Part shown: piece after piece, positions 15,353 through 61,412 of the stretch
How positions within the stretch are numbered: position 1 is the stretch's first letter
Layout of the letters: every line of letters starts with the position of its first letter
Assembly: GCA_963755715.1 (NCBI GenBank)
Contig: CAVWLW010000051.1
Location: 1 to 64,000, forward strand
Direction of reading: 5' to 3'
DNA from: an uncultured delta proteobacterium
Lineage (GTDB): Bacteria; Desulfobacterota; Binatia; UBA9968
DNA: 64,000 nt
The notes under the pieces: model-generated
Database searches by the model: none
What the model saw: the letters and a program-made list of their open reading frames with translations, nothing else
What the model was told of the DNA's origin: nothing
Program-made: the position numbers and the translations under genes

Positions 15353-16147
15353 TCAAGGATGGTACGGATTATCGAGCGCGGCTTGCTTCATCTGCAAGTG
15401 CAGATCGACCATTGTCAGCGCGCAGTATTCCATCGAATAGCCGGCGCGAAATTCGACGCATTCCTGGAGCGCGCGCGTGAGCACGGTGCGGTTAAAAGCG
15501 CCGTGGCCCATCGCTTCTTCGCCGTCTTCGCCGAGCTTGTGCGTGTCCATGTCCGCTTCTTCGTGCGTGGAAAAGTAGACCGCGTCCTGCTTGGAAAAAC
15601 CGTAATGGGTGGTGAGCGCGGTGTACCATTGTCCCGACCACATCGAGAGCGACTCTTCGAATACATGGAGTCCCCACAACTCAACGATCGAACCGTCGAT
15701 AAAAATCTTGTGGCAAAAATCATTGATCGCGCGGGCCGCGGGCAGATACGGATCCTCCAACATTTCTTTTTTGTTGAGGCCCATCTTTTCAGCGGTCTGA
15801 AGCAACACCAAAACATGGCCCGGCGCTCTCGGCGAAATCAGTTCGTCGGCGATCTTCGCGCAGAACGGCCCCAAGAGATCGAAGTTCCGAACGAAAAAAG
15901 GCAGGTGGGTGTAATAGGAGACCGCGTTAAGCGCGTTTACTTCCAAGGAGAAATGGCCCCAATTCTTAAAAAACTGGCGCATCACCGGCAGCGGCAGCTT
16001 GCCTTCGCGCAGTTGGGTCATAAATGCGCCTTTGTAAACCTTCTCGTGCGCGTACTTGTAAAGCGTTGAATAGAGATGATCGACGTAAGCCTTGGCTTCC
16101 TGTTCGCTGAGCTTTTCACCCGCCCGGGGTTCTCTTAAGTTACTCAC
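15353..16147 (-). CDS. Heme-oxygenase-like di-iron protein (CADD/PqqC/TenA superfamily)
   Basis: KIADELISPRAPGH, FEE, YFSTHEEAD...MGH ligand pattern; GGAGG RBS; paralog of 52553-53335. Confidence 0.8.
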   Translation of the reverse strand: MSNLREPRAGEKLSEQEAKAYVDHLYSTLYKYAHEKVYKGAFMTQLREGKLPLPVMRQFFKNWGHFSLEVNALNAVSYYTHLPFFVRNFDLLGPFCAKIADELISPRAPGHVLVLLQTAEKMGLNKKEMLEDPYLPAARAINDFCHKIFIDGSIVELWGLHVFEESLSMWSGQWYTALTTHYGFSKQDAVYFSTHEEADMDTHKLGEDGEEAMGHGAFNRTVLTRALQECVEFRAGYSMEYCALTMVDLHLQMKQAALDNPYHP

Positions 16148-50423: not shown

Positions 50424-51533
50424 ATGCATGCTTACGAAATCGTAATCGTCGGTGCGGGATTTGCCGGCGCCGCCACCGCGTATTATCTCACGCGGCGCGG
50501 TGTGCGCGATGTTCTGCTGATCGAGCAAGAAAGCATTCCCGGTTTCCACTCGTCCGGGCGCAACGCGGCGATGATGCGCCAATGCGTGCCGGATCCGGAT
50601 CTGGCAACGCTGACGCGCAACGGCGCAACGTTTTTGCGCCATCTGCCGGATGACTGGCCTGAACCGGTGCAGTTCAAGCAAAACGGCTCGCTGCTTTTGG
50701 GTAGCGGCGCCGGTTGGAGCAAGCTCAAACAAGATGCCGAAAGCGGCCGGCGGCTCGGCATCGACGTCGTATTGTGGACGCCGGATCAAGTGAAGCAACA
50801 CGTGCCGGTGTTGAAGCAGGCCGAGTTCGAAGGTGCAGTTTGGTGCGCTAGCGACGGCATCGTCGATATCCATGCGCTGCTTTCGGGGTATTTAAAGGCA
50901 GCAGTCAGCAAAGGGGCGAGCGTGCGCTACGACTGTCAGGTGCGCGCGGTTCGGCGGGGAAGTAATAACGAGTTTGAAATCGCCACTAACGGTGAATCGA
51001 TAAGGACGAAAACAATTGTCAATGCCAGCGGCGCCTGGGCGAACGTGATTGCGCGGATGGCGGGCGCGCGCGAGCTGCCGTTGCGACCTTGCCGGCGGCA
51101 TCTCTTTGTGTCGCCGCCGCTGGCTTGGGTCGATCCCAGCTGGCCTTTTGTTTGGGACGTCACTCACGACATCTATTTTCGTCCGGAGGGTGAGGGATTA
51201 CTTCTCTGTGCCTGTGATCAGACCGAGCTGGCGCCGGGCGATCCGCCGGTCGACGGAAGCGTTAAGGAATTGCTGGCAGAAAAAATCGAAAGATTTATGC
51301 CCGGCCTTGCCGCCGTCAGCATCAGCCGAGGCTGGGCGGGTTTTCGCACGTTGACTCCCGATGGGCGCTTTATCATCGGTTGGGACCCGGGGGTAAAGAA
51401 TTTCTTCTGGGCCGCCGGTCTCGGCGGGCATGGCATGACGACTAGCTCGGCGGTCGGTGAATTGGCTGCGGATCTTTTGATCGGCGGCTCGAGCAAAAAG
51501 TCAGAGCCTTTTTCACCAGCGAGATTTGCGTAG
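50424..51533 (+). CDS. FAD-dependent oxidoreductase (DAO/glycine oxidase family)
   Basis: IVGAGFAG, SSGRNA, NASGAWA, WAGFRT.TPD, GLGGHG. Confidence 0.9.
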   Translation: MHAYEIVIVGAGFAGAATAYYLTRRGVRDVLLIEQESIPGFHSSGRNAAMMRQCVPDPDLATLTRNGATFLRHLPDDWPEPVQFKQNGSLLLGSGAGWSKLKQDAESGRRLGIDVVLWTPDQVKQHVPVLKQAEFEGAVWCASDGIVDIHALLSGYLKAAVSKGASVRYDCQVRAVRRGSNNEFEIATNGESIRTKTIVNASGAWANVIARMAGARELPLRPCRRHLFVSPPLAWVDPSWPFVWDVTHDIYFRPEGEGLLLCACDQTELAPGDPPVDGSVKELLAEKIERFMPGLAAVSISRGWAGFRTLTPDGRFIIGWDPGVKNFFWAAGLGGHGMTTSSAVGELAADLLIGGSSKKSEPFSPARFA

Positions 51534-51551: not shown

Positions 51552-52508
51552 ATGAGGTGTTGGAGTGATGCGATCGCGAGTCGCGTGCTGAGCACCGTTT
51601 TAGTCAGTTGGTTTTTGCCTGGCGATTGCAGCATAGCGGCGCAGCCGAACAAGGTGAGAATTTCTTATTCGAGCAGGAGCAATTCCAACACGCCGTTCAT
51701 CATCGCCCTCAACAAAGGCTTCTTTGTCGAAGAAGGTATTGACGTTGAGTTAATTCAAGTCAACCCGCGGCTCGGTGCCACCGCGGTGCTGAACGGTGAC
51801 CTCGACTTCACCACGACCTTCGGCACCACGTTGCGCGGTATTATCAGCGGGTTCCCGATCAAATTCGTCGCCGTTGCGGTGAAGAAGTCCGAGCACTTTT
51901 TGGTCGTGCGCCCCGAGATCAAGGAGATCCGCGATCTAAACGGTAAAAAGCTCGGCGTGTCGACGTTGTTTGGCTCGGATCAGCGCGCCGCCGAAGAAAT
52001 GATCAGAGGCAAGGGATTCGCGCCGAATATGATGAAGCCGATCGCGCTGGGAGAGTCGCCGGTCCGAGCGCAGGCTCTGCGCGCCGGTTTGGTCGAGGCG
52101 ATTTCGATTTCATCGCCATTCGATCTCAGCTTGAAATCCGAAGGCTTTCGCGTCCTGGCGGGCCCGCAAGACGTCCAGATTGCGCTGCCCACGTCGGGCT
52201 TGGCGGTGGCCAACCGCGTGTTGCAGCAGAACCCGCAGCTCGTCAAGCGAGCGGTGCGCGCCTTGATGAAGTCGCATCGTTACGTGTTTGAGAACAAGAA
52301 AGAAGTCGTACCGCAAATGATTCGCTACCTGGAACAGACGCCCGAGGTGGCGGAGCGATCCTACGATCTTCTGGTCACCTCGCTCAGCCGCAACGGCGAG
52401 ATCACCGATCAAGAATGGGACATTCTTACGGAAAAAAAGAAGGCGGTGGAGGATGTGCGCGACTTCTCCATGCTGCGGGAAGCACAGAAAGAACTGAGGA
52501 TTAAATAA
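51552..52508 (+). CDS. NMT1/SsuA-type substrate-binding protein
   Basis: IALNKGFFVEEGIDVEL, DLNGKKLGVS, DFSML. Confidence 0.85.
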   Translation: MRCWSDAIASRVLSTVLVSWFLPGDCSIAAQPNKVRISYSSRSNSNTPFIIALNKGFFVEEGIDVELIQVNPRLGATAVLNGDLDFTTTFGTTLRGIISGFPIKFVAVAVKKSEHFLVVRPEIKEIRDLNGKKLGVSTLFGSDQRAAEEMIRGKGFAPNMMKPIALGESPVRAQALRAGLVEAISISSPFDLSLKSEGFRVLAGPQDVQIALPTSGLAVANRVLQQNPQLVKRAVRALMKSHRYVFENKKEVVPQMIRYLEQTPEVAERSYDLLVTSLSRNGEITDQEWDILTEKKKAVEDVRDFSMLREAQKELRIK

Positions 52509-52552
52509 CGTTTCCGGTTTATAGGAATGGCTTTAACTTTGGAAGGTGAATC

Positions 52553-53335
52553 ATGGCGCTGAAAGTTGAGTTAGGAAGAAAATACTCGGCAGCCGACGCG
52601 AAAGCGATCGTCGATAAACTTTATTCGATAGTGCGCGAACGCTGGGAAGTGAAGGTCAACCAGACGCCGTTTATGCAGCAGTTGATGGCGGGCAAGCTGC
52701 CGCTCAAAGTGCTGCAAACTTTTTTTCGCAACTGGGGCGCGTACACGATCGAGATCAACACGCTCACAGCGTGCACGTATCATCGAAACATTACTTTTTT
52801 CAAAGTAAATCGCGATCTGATGGGGCCGATCGGCGAGAAGATCGCCGATGAGTTCATTCACCCCAAGCCGCCGGGCCATTTTCTCGTCATGCTGCAAACC
52901 GCGCAGGCTTTCGGCCTGACCGAAGAAGAAGTTTTCACGACGCCGATGCTGTCGGAATTTCGCGGCAAGATCGATTTCATGCGCGGCATCGTCTACGAGG
53001 GCACCGCAGCGGAATGGTACTCGGCTGTGACCACGGAAGAGCAGATCGGTCATTGGTCGGCGGCCTGTTACAAGGCGCTGACGACGCATTACGGCTTTGA
53101 CCGCGACAAAGCGACTTACTTCGCGACTCATGTCGAGGCTGATCTTGCCGAACATGAGGAAGGGGTGATGGGCCACGCGAGCTTCAATCGCATGGCGCTG
53201 CAAAGATTGTTGGAAACGGGCGCGGCCGATGAGCGGCCGACTTATGGCCTGGAGTATTGCGCCATGACTTCGGTGGATCTGCATGGCGTGATGTTGCGCT
53301 CGGCGATGGCAGAGGCGGAGCGGGTAATCGTGTAG
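52553..53335 (+). CDS. Heme-oxygenase-like di-iron protein (CADD/PqqC-like)
   Basis: KIADEFIHPKPPGH, TTEE, YFATHVEAD...MGH. Confidence 0.8.
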   Translation: MALKVELGRKYSAADAKAIVDKLYSIVRERWEVKVNQTPFMQQLMAGKLPLKVLQTFFRNWGAYTIEINTLTACTYHRNITFFKVNRDLMGPIGEKIADEFIHPKPPGHFLVMLQTAQAFGLTEEEVFTTPMLSEFRGKIDFMRGIVYEGTAAEWYSAVTTEEQIGHWSAACYKALTTHYGFDRDKATYFATHVEADLAEHEEGVMGHASFNRMALQRLLETGAADERPTYGLEYCAMTSVDLHGVMLRSAMAEAERVIV

Positions 53336-53387
53336 GGGCAAACCCTCCGTAGGTTCGCCCGGATTGCCACTGTAACTGGAGGACATC

Positions 53388-54314
53388 ATGATCGAACAGA
53401 TACGCGGCATCGTTTTGCCGAGTCCTACCGTTTTTCTGGAAGATGGCAGCGTCGATGAAAAATTGATGCGCGAGCTTACCGACTGGTTTGTCGCCTGCGG
53501 CGTGCATGCGTTTTTTGTCTTGGGTTCTTACGGCCAGGGGCCGGCGATGACGCCGGAGGAAAGGAAGAAAGTTGCCGAGATTATCGTTCAGCAAGTGAAA
53601 CATCGCGTGCCGGTGGTTGTTCACGTCGGCGCGGTGGACCCATACACCGCCATCGATCTCGGCAAGCATGCGAAATCCATTGGCGCTGAAGCCATCGGCC
53701 ACGTCGGACCTTACTATTATGCCGACCGCTCCGAGTACGAAATCATCGAGCACTTCAAGATGGTCGATCGCGCGCTCGGCATGCCTATTCTCGTTTACAA
53801 CAACCCGCGCTACTCGGGTTACAATATTCATCCCGCCTTCATGGCGCGCTTGGTCGAGTCGGTGCCGAATATCTTCGGCGCGAAGCTGGCGATGGGCAGC
53901 GTCGACGAAGCGATGGCTTACATGAAGATGGTCAAAGCACCGTTTGCGCCCTATGCTCTCGCGAGCAATTTAGTTTCAGCGATGTCCGTCGGCGTCGCCG
54001 GCACGATTAGCCCGCCGCTGGCGGTGACGCCGGAAATCGGCGTCGAACTGGTCCGCGCCATCGACGCCGGCAAAGCCGAGGAAGCTTTGGCGTTGCAAAG
54101 AAGCGTGATCCGCATCCACGATCTTTTCCTGCGCCTCGCCGGCCCCTTCGGACGAACAATTTACTGCGAAGCCATGCGTCTTCGAGGTTTCGACGTGAAG
54201 ATGTACCCGCGTTGGCCGTCCAAGCCGCTTAGCCGGGATGCGTATGACGAAATGCGCGATCTGTTTACTGAACTGAAGATCATTAATGCGCCTGCCCAAG
54301 CTCGAACAGCGTAA
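53388..54314 (+). CDS. DapA/NAL-family class I aldolase/lyase
   Basis: VLGSYGQG, ERKK, VYNNP, Schiff-base Lys in FGAKL. Confidence 0.85.
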   Translation: MIEQIRGIVLPSPTVFLEDGSVDEKLMRELTDWFVACGVHAFFVLGSYGQGPAMTPEERKKVAEIIVQQVKHRVPVVVHVGAVDPYTAIDLGKHAKSIGAEAIGHVGPYYYADRSEYEIIEHFKMVDRALGMPILVYNNPRYSGYNIHPAFMARLVESVPNIFGAKLAMGSVDEAMAYMKMVKAPFAPYALASNLVSAMSVGVAGTISPPLAVTPEIGVELVRAIDAGKAEEALALQRSVIRIHDLFLRLAGPFGRTIYCEAMRLRGFDVKMYPRWPSKPLSRDAYDEMRDLFTELKIINAPAQARTA

Positions 54315-54337
54315 GTCAAGGAATTCCACACCGAGGA

Positions 54338-55297
54338 TTGCCCTGTCGTATGCAAGCTAGATTCACAACTGTATCATTAGTCGCGCTTTGGAGTTTCTCG
54401 TTGTTTTGTGTTCGAGCTTCAGCAGACGAGCGCGTGCGCATGGCTTTATCCGTGCGAAACGTCGTCTTTCTGCCGTTTTACTACGCCAAAGATACCAAGA
54501 TCTTTGCTAAGCACGGGTTGAACGTCGAGTTGATTCAGATGCGCAGCGATCTGCAGCTTGCCGGATTAGCTTCTGGGGAAATCGATTTCACGCCGTCGGT
54601 CGGTCCCGCCGGCGCCGCCATCGCCAACGGTCTTCCGCTGAAAGCGCTCGCGATTCTTTATCGCGCGCCGTTATTTTCTTTGGTGAGCCCGGCCGGCGTT
54701 TCGAGCGCGAAAGAGCTCGAAGGGAAAACGGTCGCGGTTTCCCGCATCGGTTCGGAAAGCCACCGGTACGGTTCGCTCATACTTGAAAGTGGCGGGGCCG
54801 ACCCCAAGAAAGTAACGTTTATTCAAACTGGCAGCACAACCGTAAGCCTGACTGCGCTCCAACAGGGTTCGGTCAGCGCCGCGGTACTTAGCCCCCCTTT
54901 TACGGGAATCATGGCGGAGAAAGGGTACAAGATCCTCGGGCGAAGCCGATCTCTGCTGGCGGACGCGCCATGGCTCGGTCTGGTTGCCAGTCGGCAAAAA
55001 CTCGAACGCCAGCCCGAGCAGGCAAGAAACATACTGCGCTCCATGCGCGACGTGATCGCCGTGATCAAGCGCGAAAAGCCGGCGGTTGTTTCTTACATCG
55101 AAAAAAACTTCAAAGTGAGCGCGGCCAACGCCAATGAATCCTACGACGACATCATGGGAGTGACCGTGGAGCCCCTGGTGCTACGCGACGAGCAAATTCA
55201 AAAATATCTCGATGGCTCTTTTGCCCGCGGCGAGATTCCCAAGCGCTTGACCGTCGGCGACATGTTCGATTTCTCCATGCTGCGCAACTTGAAGTGA
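54338..55297 (+). CDS. NMT1/SsuA-type substrate-binding protein
   Basis: Signal peptide, FAKHGLNVELI, LEGKTVAVS, FDFSML. Confidence 0.85.
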   Translation: MPCRMQARFTTVSLVALWSFSLFCVRASADERVRMALSVRNVVFLPFYYAKDTKIFAKHGLNVELIQMRSDLQLAGLASGEIDFTPSVGPAGAAIANGLPLKALAILYRAPLFSLVSPAGVSSAKELEGKTVAVSRIGSESHRYGSLILESGGADPKKVTFIQTGSTTVSLTALQQGSVSAAVLSPPFTGIMAEKGYKILGRSRSLLADAPWLGLVASRQKLERQPEQARNILRSMRDVIAVIKREKPAVVSYIEKNFKVSAANANESYDDIMGVTVEPLVLRDEQIQKYLDGSFARGEIPKRLTVGDMFDFSMLRNLK

Positions 55298-55347
55298 GCG
55301 ATGCCAATCGATTCTGACTTTGGTCATGCGATTCTAAGGAGTTTGCG

Positions 55348-56302
55348 ATGAGTGAAGATCAAAGACCGGTGTTATCCCTTGCCGCGGGCTATCACCTGCG
55401 CGCCAAGCCCTTGTGCGACGGCCGGGTTAAAATGAAAAACTTCGAGCTCAGAGCCGTGCCGTTCCAAGAGGATGGCGCCGGGCATGAAGAATTTCTCGCG
55501 GGCAAGTACGATACCGGGGAGTTTTCTCTGGCAAATTACGTTGCGCTGAAGAGCCGCGACGCGCCGTTCATGGCGATTCCGGTGTTTCCCAATCGCAAGT
55601 TTCGCCACTCCTACATTTTCGTGCCGGAAAATTCTCCGCTGAAAGAGCCGGCTCAACTCAAAGGCAAGAAGGTCGGCATTCTCGGCTGGCTCAATACCGC
55701 CGGCCTCTGGGCGCGCGGAATGCTCAGCGACGAATACGGCGTAAAGCCACAAGATATTCATTGGGTCATGCCGCGCAAAATGAAGCTGGATCTCACCCTG
55801 CCGACCGGCACCCGCCTGGATGTGGTGCCTGGCGAGGATTCGCTCGCGGCGCGCATGCTCAAAGGCGAATTCGACGCGATCATCGTGCCGGATTTTCCCG
55901 AAGAAAAGGGATGGCGGCGGTTATTTGCCGATTCGAAAACGGTCGAGCAAGATTTTTTTCGGCGCACCGGTGTTTTCCCGACCAGCCACGCGATTACTTT
56001 TCATTCGTCTTATTTGGAAAAATATCCAGTCGGCGGCGCAAGAAATGTTTAACGCTTGTCTCGAAGCGAAAAATCTCGCCCTGCGCGACGATGCCGACGC
56101 GACCTATTCGAACTTCGCCTGGAACCGGCAGGTTTGGGAAGAGCAGCAGGCGGTTCTCGGCGCCGATCCGTGGAAGTTCGGTATCAAAGGCAACGAGAAG
56201 GCGCTCGACGCATTGATTCGCTATGCCGACGAGCAGGGGTTGCTGGCGAAGAAAATGACCATCGCCGATCTGTTTCTTCAGATCGATGAACCGCAATCGT
56301 AA
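55348..56302 (+). CDS. 4,5-dihydroxyphthalate decarboxylase-like protein; +1 frameshift at ~56028
   Basis: DGRVK, EFSLANY, IPVFPNRKFRHS, LWARGML..EYGV, DPWKFGI..N...L..L..Y..EQG. Confidence 0.82.
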
Positions 56303-56319
56303 AGGGGAACTCAGACAAC

Positions 56320-57789
56320 ATGGCAATTACCACCCATGAGCATCAGGGACACGGCGACCACGGACACGATCATGAAGGCGCCGTCGGGCCGCACACGCAC
56401 CTCACCAGTGTTGGCATCGATATCGGTTCTTCGACTTCCCATCTGATGTTTTCCCAGCTGCTGATCGGTTATCCGTCGGTGCTGCAGCGAAAACCGATCG
56501 TGCTCGAACGCAACGTGATCGCGCGCTCGCCGATTTTGCTCACGCCCTTCAGCGGCGATTGGAACATCGAAGCCGGTCCGCTGAGCGAGCTGGTCGACGA
56601 TACATTCCAAGCCGCGGGATTGACCCGCGACGACATTGACACCGGCGCGGTGATCATCACCGGCGAAGCGGCGCGGCGCGACAACGCCCAGAAGATCGCC
56701 GAGCTGTTTTCCGACGAAGCGGGACGTTTCGTGTGCGCGACCGCAGGACCGAAGCTCGAGACGACCATGGCGGCGCACGGCTCCGGCGCGGTGCAACAGA
56801 GCCGCGAGCAAGGCCTGGTTCTGCTCAACATCGACGTCGGTGGCGGCACGACGAAAATCAGCCTGATCGACAATGGCAAGATCCGCGCAACGACCGCGGT
56901 CAATATCGGCGCGCGACTGGTGGCCCACGACGGCGCGGATGTGATCGTGCGCTTGGAAAAAGGCGGTCGGCGGTTTCTTCAAGATCTTGGGCAGCGGCTG
57001 GATTTCGGCGCGAGAGTTCCCGATGATCTGCGCGCTCAGCTCGCAAGTCGGATGGCGCAAGCGCTCTTCGGTGCGCTGACGACCAGCGCACAACCGTGGG
57101 AGGATTTTTACGTGATACCCGGGTTGGGCGAACTGCCGGCGATCGATGGCATTCTCTTCTCGGGCGGCGTTTCGGAATATATCTACTCGCGCGAGGCCAA
57201 GGTGTTCGGCGACTTGGGTCCGTATTTAGGCCGAGCGATTCGTCGCGAAGCGGAAAGTCGCGGTTTCAATATTCTCGAAGCGGGCGAGGGCATCCGCGCC
57301 ACCGTCATCGGCGCGTCGCAGTACACCGTGCAATTGAGCGGTGAGACGATCTTCATTCCTAAATCAATGAATTTGCCGGTGCGTAATTTACGTGTCTTTG
57401 TCGCCAACGTTGGCTGGGATGCGCCGGTTGCCGATAAGGCCGAGAGCGCGGTGAAAAAAACTCTCGGCGCGCGCGATCCGGAAGTGCGCGGCACGCCGTT
57501 CGTGCTGGCGTTTTCGACGCCGCCGTTTACCGGCTACGGCGCCGTGCAAGACATGGCGCGCGGCATCGACCGCGCGCTGGAGACCTTGCCGGCCGAAGAT
57601 CGCCCGGTGGCGTTGGTTTTTGTGCAGAACATCGGCCAGGTAGTCGGCGGCATGCTCTCGGCGAAATGGAACATGCCTTGCGTCGACGAGGTGAGCTTGT
57701 CCGAGCTCGACTTTATCGACATCGGCGAAGTGGTCGAGAGTGAAGGTTTCGTGCCGGTGGTGATTAAAAGTTTGGCCTTCGGAGTATGA
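56320..57789 (+). CDS. EutA-like ASKHA ATPase (reactivase family) with His-rich N-terminus
   Basis: SVGIDIGSSTSH, IITGEAARRDN, NIDVGGGTTK, FSGGVSEY, IRATVIGASQ, VPVVIKSL. Confidence 0.88.
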   Translation: MAITTHEHQGHGDHGHDHEGAVGPHTHLTSVGIDIGSSTSHLMFSQLLIGYPSVLQRKPIVLERNVIARSPILLTPFSGDWNIEAGPLSELVDDTFQAAGLTRDDIDTGAVIITGEAARRDNAQKIAELFSDEAGRFVCATAGPKLETTMAAHGSGAVQQSREQGLVLLNIDVGGGTTKISLIDNGKIRATTAVNIGARLVAHDGADVIVRLEKGGRRFLQDLGQRLDFGARVPDDLRAQLASRMAQALFGALTTSAQPWEDFYVIPGLGELPAIDGILFSGGVSEYIYSREAKVFGDLGPYLGRAIRREAESRGFNILEAGEGIRATVIGASQYTVQLSGETIFIPKSMNLPVRNLRVFVANVGWDAPVADKAESAVKKTLGARDPEVRGTPFVLAFSTPPFTGYGAVQDMARGIDRALETLPAEDRPVALVFVQNIGQVVGGMLSAKWNMPCVDEVSLSELDFIDIGEVVESEGFVPVVIKSLAFGV

Positions 57790-57790
57790 C

Positions 57791-57967
57791 ATGAAATCGA
57801 ACTTTCGCGATTCGCCGGTTTGGTTCGCACGGATGATGGGCTTGTTGTTTTCTCTCGCGGTGCTTTCGGGCACGACGATGCCGGTGGGCGAGTTTCAGAT
57901 CTTCGAGCAGGCGCCGAAAGAAAAATATCCGCTCGACACAATATTCGCCGCGTGGGCATCAGATTGA
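57791..57967 (+). CDS. Possible 58-aa small ORF or internally deleted gene remnant
   Basis: GGAG then ATG 1 nt after the eutA stop; MKSNFRDSPVWFARMMGLLFSLAVLSGTTMPVGEFQIFEQAPKEKYPLDTIFAAWASD*. Confidence 0.35.
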   Translation: MKSNFRDSPVWFARMMGLLFSLAVLSGTTMPVGEFQIFEQAPKEKYPLDTIFAAWASD

Positions 57968-58153
57968 TATCGATCGCTTGTTGGACAGTGGAAACTTGCA
58001 TGTGATAAGAACCGAAGGAGAATACAGCCGATACATGAAGTTATATAATGAAGTATTAGGAACACTCTAAGAAAATTAATTGCCGAAGCCATTCTGGCCC
58101 AAGGCAAACAACGTAAAAGCTGAAAAACCTGGTTTCGATAGAGGGAAGGATCC

Positions 58154-58867
58154 ATGGGCGCGGCAAATGGCATCGAAAAAATGTGGGAAGAGTTAGTCGG
58201 TTTGTGTAATGCGCAATTTAGTTCGGCGCCGTTCAAACGCCTGCTCAGCGCAAAGTTCACCCAGGCGCGTGCGCAGCAGTATTCCATTCAAATGGCCTAC
58301 TACGTGCAAAATCGGCGCGATTGTTGGGGTTACGTCCAGGGCTCGGCGCCGTTCGAAATCAAGAAGCTGATCTGGCAGCACGAAGAAGACGAGCTGATCG
58401 GTCAAAAAGCGCAAGGCAAGGTCGACCACATCACATTGGCGGTGAAAGAAGGCGAAGTGTTCGGCCTAAGCGCGGAGGCATTCGAGCGGACCGCGCGTCT
58501 CGAAGGCGGCGAGGTTTGTTTCAGCGCGTGGATTCGTCTGGCGCAGCGCTCCTGGTTGGAGGCTATCGCCGCATCGGCGATACTCGAAATGCGCAATTCC
58601 GGCGAGTTGATCGAAGGCGGCTCCTTATCGCAGCGCATCGGCGCCATGTTCGAGCGCGATCTCAGTATTCCCATGAAAAAGCAGATTAACAACGCCGAGC
58701 ACGTGGTCATGGACGTAGAACATGCTCATCTGTTGATGCAGGTGGCGCGCACATACGCCACGACGGACTCGACCCGCCAGGCGATCCTGCGCGGCGCCAA
58801 AGAGAGTCTGATGATCGACCGGGTCTATCGCGGCCATCTCGCGGAAATAGTCGAGGCGCTGCCGTAG
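58154..58867 (+). CDS. Heme-oxygenase-like di-iron protein, second subfamily (copy 1)
   Basis: NRRDCWGYVQG, WQHEEDEL...DH, LE.RN, EHVVMDVEH. Confidence 0.8.
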   Translation: MGAANGIEKMWEELVGLCNAQFSSAPFKRLLSAKFTQARAQQYSIQMAYYVQNRRDCWGYVQGSAPFEIKKLIWQHEEDELIGQKAQGKVDHITLAVKEGEVFGLSAEAFERTARLEGGEVCFSAWIRLAQRSWLEAIAASAILEMRNSGELIEGGSLSQRIGAMFERDLSIPMKKQINNAEHVVMDVEHAHLLMQVARTYATTDSTRQAILRGAKESLMIDRVYRGHLAEIVEALP

Positions 58868-58907
58868 GCACCGCGATTTTCCGCGGACAAACGGAGGAAT
58901 AATATCT

Positions 58908-59612
58908 ATGGATATCGTAAACGATTTGCTGAAAACGCTGGACCAGATGGTCAACGATCAGTTCGACAGCGTGGAGTTCAAGAATTTTCTTGCCGTGCCC
59001 TTGACGCTGGAGCGCGGGCGCTTTTACGTCATTCAAAATGCGCTTTATACCAGCAATCGGCGCGACTGCTGGGGCTACGTCCAGGGCGGCGCGCCACTGG
59101 AAGTCAAACGCGTCATTTGGCAACACGAAAGCGACGAGCTGATCAACGATCCACGCGCGGGGATGGATCATTACGCCCTCACGGTCAAACAGGGCGAAGT
59201 CATCGGTCTCAAACCTGAAGATTTCGCGAAGGCCGAGATCCCATCGATGGTGCGCGCATGCTTTTATGCCTGGCACCATATCGCTATGCACAACCATTGG
59301 CTGACGGCTTACACGGCGTCGCACATGCTCGAACGGCGCAACAACGGCAAGATCGTCCAAAACGGCGGCATGTCGTACCGGGTCGGCAAGAAATTCGAAA
59401 ACGAGCTTGGGATCAATTTAAAGAAGATGATCTCACTCGACGTTCACGTGGTCGCCGATACCGAGCACTCGGAAAATATTTCCGAGATGTTCGAGCGCTA
59501 TGTCAAAACTGGCGAAGACCGCGACCTGGTTCTAAAAGGTGCACAGGATTCGATGGCGATCGATCGCGCCTATCGCGGCGCGCTCGGTTACTACATGGAG
59601 CAGATTAACTAG
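58908..59612 (+). CDS. Heme-oxygenase-like di-iron protein, second subfamily (copy 2)
   Basis: NRRDCWGYVQG, WQHESDEL...DH, LERRN, VHVVADTEH. Confidence 0.8.
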   Translation: MDIVNDLLKTLDQMVNDQFDSVEFKNFLAVPLTLERGRFYVIQNALYTSNRRDCWGYVQGGAPLEVKRVIWQHESDELINDPRAGMDHYALTVKQGEVIGLKPEDFAKAEIPSMVRACFYAWHHIAMHNHWLTAYTASHMLERRNNGKIVQNGGMSYRVGKKFENELGINLKKMISLDVHVVADTEHSENISEMFERYVKTGEDRDLVLKGAQDSMAIDRAYRGALGYYMEQIN

Positions 59613-59687
59613 ACGCTTGCCGATACGGATGATGGAACTTTTTGCATTTCAAAATAGCTTCAATCGCGAGTTAGGAGGACATAAAAC

Positions 59688-60779
59688 ATGATGAAGAATT
59701 TAAATCTCAACGAGGCATCGGCTTATTCACGAAAGAGTCCGTACGACATCTATCAGGAGTGGGAAGGAATTCCGGTATACAAAGATTTCATTATTCCGGA
59801 CCTGCTGAAGTTGGAGCTCGGCGATTGGACGCGCACCGGCGGCAAGGCGGCCTTTGCCAACATGGACGGCGCCGGCGGCACTTGCGATACGGTGATCGAG
59901 GAAATCGCGCCCGGCGGACAGCTCAAACCGGTTCGACACATGTATGAAAAGGCGATTTTCATTCTCGAGGGCCAGGGCGCGACGACGATCTGGAATGAAG
60001 GCGGCAAGAAGCACACGCTCGAGTGGCAGAAGGGAAGTCTTTTTTCCACGCCGCTCAACACTTGGCATCAACATTTCAATGCTCAAGGTAGTGCGCCGGT
60101 GCGGATGATTTCTTTGACCGACGCGCCGGTGATTATCAATCGCTATCGCAACCTCGACTACATTTTTAATAATAGTTTTATTTTCTCCGATCGTTACAGC
60201 GGCGGTGCCGATGAATGGGGCAAGGGCGGGCGATACGTCCCCGAAGTAAAAAAAGGGCGCGTCTGGGAATCGAACTTCATCGCCGATTTGTGGGGATTTC
60301 AACCCATCGAGTACAAAGAACGAGGCGGCGATAACCGGACCACGCTCTTCGAGTTCGTCGATAATACCATGAGCGCGCATCTGTCAGAGTTCCCGGTCGG
60401 CAAATACAAAAAAGCCCACCGTCACGGCGCAGGAGCGCATATCGTGATGCTCACCGGCGCCGGGTATTCTTTTCTTTGGCCGGAGGGCGAATACGGCACC
60501 AAGAAACGCGTCGAGTGGGGGCGCATGAGCATGTTCGTGCCGCCGATGCAGTGGTGGCACCAACATTTTAATCCTGGAGCCGAGCCGGCGCGTTATCTCG
60601 CGCTCAAGCCTTGGGGTTTTAAGTTCAACGTCGAGGATCTCAAGGACACTGGGGAAGACGTGAAGAGTGGCGGTGCGCAGATCGAATACCAGGATCAAAA
60701 TCCGGAGATTCACAAGGTATTTCTTTCCGAATGCGCGCGGCGCGGCGCCGAAGCGCGCATGCCGATGTTCGGCACCTGA
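59688..60779 (+). CDS. Bicupin protein (gentisate-dioxygenase-like fold)
   Basis: RHMYE...GQG...WHQHFN and AHRHGAG...WWHQHFN; AGGAGG RBS. Confidence 0.85.
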   Translation: MMKNLNLNEASAYSRKSPYDIYQEWEGIPVYKDFIIPDLLKLELGDWTRTGGKAAFANMDGAGGTCDTVIEEIAPGGQLKPVRHMYEKAIFILEGQGATTIWNEGGKKHTLEWQKGSLFSTPLNTWHQHFNAQGSAPVRMISLTDAPVIINRYRNLDYIFNNSFIFSDRYSGGADEWGKGGRYVPEVKKGRVWESNFIADLWGFQPIEYKERGGDNRTTLFEFVDNTMSAHLSEFPVGKYKKAHRHGAGAHIVMLTGAGYSFLWPEGEYGTKKRVEWGRMSMFVPPMQWWHQHFNPGAEPARYLALKPWGFKFNVEDLKDTGEDVKSGGAQIEYQDQNPEIHKVFLSECARRGAEARMPMFGT

Positions 60780-60818
60780 GCCTTCGTCAAGTTTTCATAA
60801 TGGTCGCAGTCTAGCGGG

Positions 60819-60844
60819 AGCCGGTGGCAATTGTGTCACCGGCT
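60819..60844 (+). terminator. Stem-loop after the bicupin gene (possible terminator)
   Basis: AGCCGGTGGCA-ATTG-TGTCACCGGCT; no clear U tract. Confidence 0.4.
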
Positions 60845-61040
60845 TCGCTGTCTTGCCTCACGCACCATATTATGAACTTCATGGCGGTCATTGGGAGCGA
60901 CATCGAGGGTACCGGTAAGCATCTGGATAGGGTCCCCCGCATAGCACATCCGCGAGAGGGTAGAGATTTTCCTAGCCAATTTAACGCGCTTTTGCTATCA
61001 TAAACCGGTTATAAAACGGTCGCTCACGTCAAAGACTCAA

Positions 61041-61412
61041 ATGCAATCACCGAAACCAACATCGGCGAACGCGGGTTTCACGCTACTTGAGCTCATCGTC
61101 GTCGTAGCTGTGTTAGGTATTCTTGCGGCTATAGCGATCCAGCAGTTCTCGCTCTTTCGCAGCCGTGCCGTGGATGCGTCCATGCGTTCGGATCTCAAGA
61201 ATGGGGCGCTGGCGATGGAAAGTTACTACGGAGAATTTTTGGACTATCCGACGACTCTGAGCGCGATGCAAGTCGTCGGTTATCGAAAAACCAACGGCGT
61301 GACAATGACGATTAACGTGACCTCGCCATCGACCTTCACCTTGAACGCGGCAATGCCGAACGGCACCCAGCCGAGCTTCACTTTCGACAGTACCACTGGT
61401 TTGATCAATTGA
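61041..61412 (+). CDS. Type IVa pilin-like protein
   Basis: Class III signal AG|FTLLELIVVVAVLGILAAIAI with E5. Confidence 0.88.
   Translation: MQSPKPTSANAGFTLLELIVVVAVLGILAAIAIQQFSLFRSRAVDASMRSDLKNGALAMESYYGEFLDYPTTLSAMQVVGYRKTNGVTMTINVTSPSTFTLNAAMPNGTQPSFTFDSTTGLIN

Follow-up and report, generated by a model that had tools for sequence, protein, structure and literature searches.

Introduction

Heme-oxygenase-like dimetal proteins (HDOs) such as CADD, NePabS, UndA, BesC, SznF, FlcD and AetD have a seven-helix fold in common and bind their metals through three histidines and three carboxylates. The review PMC13108848, which describes this 3H/3C motif, counts about a dozen characterised members among more than 10,000 HDOs, mostly in biosynthesis, including SznF, where an HDO and a cupin share one chain. 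EutA is the ATP-dependent reactivating factor of ethanolamine ammonia-lyase and clears damaged B12 from EutBC (PMC5821096). The gentisate and salicylate 1,2-dioxygenases (3BU7, 2PHD) are bicupins with an H-x-H plus distal His metal motif. Relatives of these three groups stand side by side in the locus analysed here, a nine-gene cluster in a stretch of 64,000 nucleotides (the window) on contig C51 of the 7.4-Mb assembly of an uncultured Binatia bacterium (G000; other genomes and loci are given as G and L numbers where needed).

The cluster encodes two binding proteins (SBP1, SBP2), three HDOs (HDO1 to HDO3), a DapA-like aldolase, a PhtD-like decarboxylase, a EutA-like ATPase and a bicupin (Table 1). 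An earlier note, made from the sequence alone, had proposed an O2-dependent catabolic or tailoring pathway and knew of no characterised pathway with this combination; none was found in the literature searched. The folds, the ligands and the genes that recur nearby (a decarboxylase and an aldolase, with Rieske oxygenases and a FAH-like hydrolase in other lineages) agree with O2-dependent aromatic catabolism; the idea of one fixed pathway unit does not hold. We consider it moderately probable that this is a modular Ca. Binatia cluster for the O2-dependent breakdown of a carboxylated (hetero)aromatic acid, with the EutA-like ATPase as an accessory factor.

Three HDOs with complete ligand sets

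All three HDOs retain the 3-His/3-carboxylate set. In HDO1 it consists of E100, H109, E162, H193, D197 and either H201 or H208, the third histidine being ambiguous; the first five and H208 are invariant in 19 of 19 aligned rows. HDO2 (E80, H92, E145, H183, D187 and H190, from the alignment) and HDO3 (E77, H88, E142, H180, D184 and H187) follow the pattern E-H / E / H-D-H. The HDO3 model (predicted local distance difference test, pLDDT, 94) has CADD as its best fold match in Foldseek (TM 0.77) and reaches TM 0.71 with BesC, and for HDO1 and HDO2 the heme-oxygenase-like fold is indicated by profile matches only. Among 30 aligned rows, many from close orthologues, 27-29 retain each of five arginines of HDO2 and HDO3 (R51, R52, R158, R220 and R223 in HDO3 numbering), a pattern that would fit a carboxylate substrate.

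The closest solved HDOs are CADD, the nearest PDB sequence to HDO1 (E 5e-11), and NePabS. This kinship, together with the union of HDO and cupin in SznF (PMC13108848), could point to biosynthesis or cofactor salvage: the HDOs would then tailor an amino acid, like SznF, BesC and AetD, or, like CADD, produce an aromatic precursor. The cluster proteins differ from the described enzymes in sequence (16% identity), in an arginine-rich conservation pattern and in a catabolic-looking context, with about 28 copies in one genome. The position of the sacrificial Tyr27 of CADD is occupied by Met in HDO1 and by Phe in HDO2 and HDO3 in profile alignments, so they are not self-sacrificing para-aminobenzoate synthases, and the curated CADD model scores 31 bits against a cut-off of 200. 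Since the cluster holds no ligase, nonribosomal peptide synthetase or exporter and the genes around the HDOs encode uptake proteins, decarboxylases and aldolases, we regard a biosynthetic role as quite unlikely; of the two options left by the earlier note, catabolic or tailoring, the former is favoured. Some database copies of these HDOs are auto-named PqqC. In comparisons by profile and by fold, the cluster proteins gave no NCBIfam PqqC match at E 0.01, and the fold is similar to that of PqqC (TM 0.81).

A search of 150 further genomes of the phylum with the HDO2/3 profile (E 1e-30) gave no match, and plasmids searched contained no relative of HDO1 or HDO3. Elsewhere in G000, a stretch of contig C63 (43000-62500, L059) has a row of about five HDO2/3-type genes with binding-protein genes in between and amidohydrolases after them. 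Amidohydro_2 proteins, often paired, also accompany HDOs and bicupins in L058, L062 and L176, as in L059, and lie within 3 kb of 5 of the 16 HDO2/3 genes of G000 (random mean 1.2); they might be amidohydrolase-related dinuclear oxygenases (compare PMC13154177).

A bicupin with an invariant histidine set

The C-terminal domain of the bicupin contains four histidines (H244, H246, H291 and H293) that are invariant in 60 of 60 aligned sequences. Its model (pLDDT 92) gives VIA Z scores of 21.0 to 3BU7 (root-mean-square deviation 3.7, 265 aligned residues) and 20.8 to 2PHD, and the top Foldseek matches are MncA and oxalate decarboxylase. The modelled fold and shared metal motif suggest a distant relative of the gentisate/salicylate 1,2-dioxygenases, from which the protein differs in its low identity (12-18%), in the placing of its four invariant histidines in the C-terminal domain and in its score with the curated gentisate model TIGR02272 (31 vs 442 bits). 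The family can be very numerous: at E 1e-40 there are 60 matches in G025 (4.5 Mb) and 36 in G027 (3.5 Mb), often in tandem arrays with amidohydrolases (L176).

A EutA-like ATPase without EutB

The EutA-like protein is homologous to EutA over its full length (about 33% identity to the enterobacterial protein), and its ASKHA motifs are intact, with D34, G36, the D172-K179 core, G282, G283 and E286 invariant in 75 of 75 sequences. Its best NCBIfam EutA score, however, is 295 bits against an equivalog cut-off of 598, and a quick tree, sampled by similarity to the window protein and with long outgroup branches, sets 106 EutA-like proteins apart from four canonical EutA. Each of the 41 genomes searched, this one and 40 relatives, has 2-10 EutA-like genes, and in none of them was EutB found (22 of the 41 at least 90% complete; E. 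coli control positive), which bears out the earlier description of the gene as an orphan. A search for solved EutA-family structures returned only short matches to MreB, FtsA or Ppx, and the viral contigs searched held no EutA-like relative. One sub-branch with acidic N-tails (L053, L084, L102, L110 and L121) has no cupin and lies beside TPR and large membrane-protein genes.

Across phyla, the EutA-like gene is often paired with a bicupin. The 80 best of 527 genome hits come from several phyla; 44 of these loci have a bicupin directly next to the EutA-like gene, and 57 have one within the locus. Unbiased draws from two other orders, each of 300 random genomes plus the seed genome, agree with this. 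In the alphaproteobacterial order the EutA-like gene and the bicupin occur in the identical 5 of 301 genomes (4 besides the seed), two of which also carry EutB far from the pair. In the betaproteobacterial order the 2 of 301 genomes (1 besides the seed) with EutA hits above 600 bits are the sole two with the bicupin, whereas all five tested of the six weaker hits adjoin EutB. On plasmids, the four records with EutA-like genes of about 40% identity are the four with bicupins of about 40%; three are related Sinorhizobium. The proteobacterial pair stands among Rieske oxygenases, PhtD-like genes, class II aldolases and Tct transporters. The EutA-like gene of the window thus belongs to a wider EutA-bicupin system, and a search of five alphaproteobacterial genomes with the pair found no HDO2/3-type gene.

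A complex prediction lends weak support to a paralogous adjacent pair of G000 (L051), which scores 0.51 against 0.00 for the best control, with runs agreeing in at least 83% of contacts and partner pLDDT of at least 75. Of 157 solved pairs, 116 pass the mark applied, as do 2 of 215 mismatched pairs; the passes at or below 0.60 comprise only 18 of the solved pairs and both mismatched ones.

Histidine-rich tails and nickel genes

Eight histidines fall among the first 27 residues of the EutA-like protein of the window. Many relatives have long poly-His C-termini, and at least four histidines lie within 20 tail residues in 26 of 67 proteins with parsable ends; three of three canonical EutA checked lack a His-rich tail. 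Near the EutA-bicupin pair, nickel genes recur: the Phyllobacterium pair lies directly beside genes for a HoxN/NixA transporter and NikR, a NicO-type family occurs in 5 of 80 loci, all of related Betaproteobacteria (one member scanned, above cut-off), joined by NikR and CobW in L145, and HupE/UreJ was found in the loci of one of four randomly drawn genomes (the 45 proteins scanned include 44 from 64 unlabelled open reading frames, ORFs). The neighbour scan covered 104 of 123 candidates, and NicO-type genes were not seen beside the fetched Binatia loci.

Tails and nearby transporters together suggest a metal loader or reactivase. The metal is possibly nickel, which we treat as a lead and not a result because the independent cases number about three to four, none of them in Binatia. 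On this lead one may tentatively picture a widespread branch of EutA-like ATPases that, driven by ATP, insert nickel (or cobalt) into ring-cleaving bicupin oxygenases or reactivate them; one sub-branch of these ATPases would have been redeployed in Binatia to HDO-based aromatic catabolism. Two EutA-like genes of different sub-branches are often close together (L086, L095, L123, L144, L150, L151, L181 and L183); in several such doublets one protein has a long poly-His tail and the other none, possibly a two-protein loader.

The EutA-like protein might instead be catabolic itself, an ASKHA kinase or the subunit of an ATP-dependent hydrolase that would phosphorylate an intermediate of the pathway and form a two-part enzyme with the bicupin. 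ASKHA proteins include kinases and hydantoinase A subunits, the EutA-like protein has a weak Pfam match to hydantoinase A as well as invariant ATP motifs, and strict co-occurrence and the weak complex prediction fit two subunits equally well. Yet its full-length homology is to a reactivase (PF06277), the gene is lost from clusters that keep the enzymes, and His-rich tails, absent from the three canonical EutA checked, as well as nickel transporters or NikR in several lineages, speak for metal handling; a catabolic subunit is unlikely.

Decarboxylase, aldolase and binding proteins

The PhtD-like gene is broken into two ORFs (55348-56052 and 55820-56302) by one additional base at about 56028-56030. 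The base is missing from the contigs of three of three DNA runs (three studies) and from the closest relative, G001, and most relatives have the gene in one uninterrupted ORF; the added base is probably an assembly error, because other genes of the assembly are also split (e.g., 12 of 51 UbiD-like genes). The intact G001 orthologue is homologous over its full length to 4,5-dihydroxyphthalate decarboxylase (9JP7, E 9e-43), and identity to proteins annotated as such is about 32%; here, however, the cluster has no phthalate dioxygenase and the genome holds 30 paralogs. In L071 (2309-4819) PhtD-like and EutA-like frames are fused in one ORF, which could be an assembly artefact.

The aldolase retains Tyr136 and the Schiff-base Lys166 and has YagE as its best PDB match. 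It carries GSYGQ at the site of the DHDPS/NAL family motif, which we take to be GTTGE, and remains under every NCBIfam cut-off, dapA and nanA included. NMT1-type binding proteins are in large excess in G000, with about 425 by our own profile and 566 Pfam candidates (150 scored, all over the cut-off), beside 113 matches to ABC permease domains; most binding-protein genes of the fetched loci have no adjoining transporter.

Conservation and modularity

Twenty-one loci of the genus were fetched, nine of which end at a contig boundary. The cluster genes co-occur in these relatives, with the exact nine-gene order kept in only 6 of the 21 (L034, L037, L038, L040, L044 and L163; several with split genes) and single genes lost elsewhere: DapA is absent from the cluster in L035 and L166, PhtD in L041, HDO2 in L041, L048 and L049, and SBP1 from its position in seven loci. 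HDO3 varies least, with an orthologue of at least 79% identity in 20 of 24 genus genomes. All genus loci with enough flank occupy one chromosomal site, so their synteny reflects inheritance and is not independent evidence. Near-identical DNA was found mostly in soil runs.

In another family (f3) the HDO2-HDO3 pair is present in 9 of 11 genomes. All six fetched loci carry a second, distant bicupin, and in five of them a bicupin 78-79% identical to that of the window is accompanied by UbiD and a TctC-like binding protein upstream. Since HDO2, HDO3 and the bicupin recur in two families with different decarboxylases, they form a stable core with an exchangeable decarboxylase, PhtD-like or UbiD. 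A rearranged copy at another site (L076) joins best-hit orthologues of HDO1 (70% identity), DapA (55%), PhtD (51%) and EutA (63%), in changed order, with an HDO3-type gene, two cupins and a gene that is presumably a FAH-like hydrolase; its content ties the left half of the cluster to the core, in one genome. The cluster is therefore modular, and its nine genes are not one fixed unit.

Gene families of the cluster are all multi-copy in G000, where our own profiles at E 1e-10 give the approximate counts of 425 binding proteins, 38 bicupins, 16 HDO2/3-type and 12 HDO1-type proteins, 30 PhtD-like, 51 UbiD-like and 6 EutA-like. Such abundance, the 364-nt internal gap, the losses in relatives and the inheritance of a single site in the genus would all be expected of a landing site for paralogs, at which two or three unrelated mini-operons (HDO1-DapA-SBP-PhtD; EutA; HDO2-HDO3-cupin) happen to lie side by side. 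What makes this doubtful is that L076, albeit one genome, reunites the HDO1, DapA, PhtD and EutA orthologues in another order and at another site, and that in G000 5 of the 6 EutA-like genes have a bicupin within 3 kb, where the random mean is 0.23, as do 6 of the 16 HDO2/3 genes, where it is 0.58. Proximity in G000 was not above chance for bicupins and binding proteins (125 of 1000) or for EutA-like and HDO2/3 genes (80 of 1000).

A possible route for aromatic acid breakdown

For breakdown of a carboxylated (hetero)aromatic acid by the modular cluster, we infer the following order of steps. The binding proteins would capture the compound, and the three dimetal HDOs would oxidise it with O2, by hydroxylation or oxidative C-C cleavage. 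The PhtD-like enzyme, or UbiD in the other family, would take off a carboxyl group, the bicupin would open the ring, and the DapA-like aldolase would split the product to pyruvate and an aldehyde. By analogy with EutA, which clears spent cofactor from ethanolamine ammonia-lyase, the EutA-like ATPase may, at the expense of ATP, insert or exchange the metal in bicupins of this family, or possibly that of HDO3 in this sub-branch.

Several observations weigh against this scheme. The HDOs listed in the parts of PMC13108848 consulted here belong to biosynthesis, and most of them have fatty acids or amino acids as substrates. The bicupin is only 18% identical to gentisate dioxygenase, and VIA matches it almost as well to seed storage proteins and oxalate decarboxylase (Z 19.5-19.6). 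Neither a permease nor a reductase lies within the cluster. The helper role is challenged by the genomic context: the cupin is missing in L048 and L079 while EutA and HDO3 stay, EutA is missing from the cluster in L164, L165 and L166, and no EutA lies within the stretch in any of the six f3 loci. The window EutA is not adjacent to a cupin, and within its sub-branch (18 proteins, SH-aLRT 100) only that of L076 is; the steady neighbour there is an HDO, and the two most basal members adjoin an amidohydrolase (L042/L043). Bicupins also far outnumber EutA-like genes in G000. In favour of the helper role, the distances of 48 adjacent EutA-bicupin pairs correlate (rho 0.78; 0 of 2000 permutations), although co-inheritance alone could produce this. 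Where the cluster copy is missing, EutA paralogs could act in trans.

Gene order and flanking features

ORF and profile checks confirm nine genes on the plus strand, in the order and of the families proposed earlier. All junctions fall within the 17-75 nt given in the earlier note, with the exception of the 364 nt between EutA and HDO2. The final 200 nt of this gap have 41.5% GC against about 56% regionally, and the gap makes an internal promoter for HDO2-HDO3-bicupin possible; a promoter scan, which performs at chance level (6 found vs 6.6 expected), called no consensus promoter in it. The terminal stem-loop is real (z = -4.3; 0 of 200 shuffles equally stable) and occurs once in the genome; it has no U-run and was not called as a terminator. 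It would be a transcript end or stabiliser and is not a classical intrinsic terminator. For SBP2, whose longest ORF begins at TTG 54338, the ATG at 54350 is the likelier start.

Table 1. Features of the cluster and its borders (window positions)
Feature	Position	Strand	Basis
FAD-dependent amine-oxidase-like	50424..51533	+	NCBIfam matches below cut-off
SBP1, NMT1/SsuA-type binding protein, signal-peptide-like start	51552..52508	+	PF09084 E 9e-25
HDO1, heme-oxygenase-like dimetal protein	52553..53335	+	PF14518
DapA/NAL-family class I aldolase	53388..54314	+	PF00701 E 6e-51
SBP2, NMT1/SsuA-type binding protein	54350..55297	+	PF09084 E 1e-18
PhtD-like decarboxylase, binding-protein fold, no signal peptide	55348..56302	+	9JP7 match via G001 orthologue
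EutA-like ASKHA ATPase, His-rich N-tail	56320..57789	+	PF06277 E 1e-109
364-nt AT-richer gap	57790..58153		composition of final 200 nt
HDO2	58154..58867	+	PF14518
HDO3	58908..59612	+	model and fold match to CADD
Bicupin	59688..60779	+	alignment of 60, model, VIA matches
GC-rich hairpin without U-run	60813..60849	+	shuffle test

The co-oriented FAD oxidoreductase gene, omitted from the earlier note, ends 18 nt upstream of SBP1 and is possibly co-transcribed with the cluster. It adjoins the cluster in the genus loci and is found neither in the rearranged L076 nor in the six f3 loci; it is probably a chromosomal neighbour. A lone type IV pilin-like gene (61041-61412) follows the cluster in most genus loci, and a further HDO1 paralog (about 45% identity) lies on the minus strand at 15353-16147, beside queF and dnaB. 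Scattered contigs of an RNA run fall on HDO1, DapA, EutA, HDO2, HDO3 and the cupin, one spanning HDO3-cupin; they are not used as evidence, because contigs cannot show transcription.

Relation to published work and significance

No published account of the EutA-cupin pair or of this cluster was found in the literature searched, in which subscription journals are sparsely represented. The paper on Binatota genomes (PMC8262859) makes no mention of cupin, ethanolamine, nickel, phthalate, paralog or substrate-binding, and the Atlas search returned only unnamed cupin and HDO clusters. The lumichrome pathway combines a cupin with thiamine pyrophosphate (TPP) decarboxylases, and its text does not contain the words 'ethanolamine' or 'nickel' (PMC12746152); compared by description, it is an analogy only.

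The database label 'ethanolamine-utilisation' for these ATPases is misleading in all 41 genomes of the order searched, since none of them showed EutB. Should the metal sites of cupins be what the branch maintains, this would be a metal-loading role for an ASKHA ATPase, for which we found no prior account, and it would explain how the bicupin family can reach 60 copies in one 4.5-Mb genome. The nickel or cobalt reading, if true, would make the EutA-like branch metallochaperones of a new kind and the bicupins a new family of metal-dependent enzymes, and would give HDOs a part in catabolism. The EutA-bicupin pair is carried by cultured Phyllobacterium and Sinorhizobium strains. These Binatia are widespread in soil runs and carry many such modules, and the pathway may help soil bacteria to mineralise aromatic acids.

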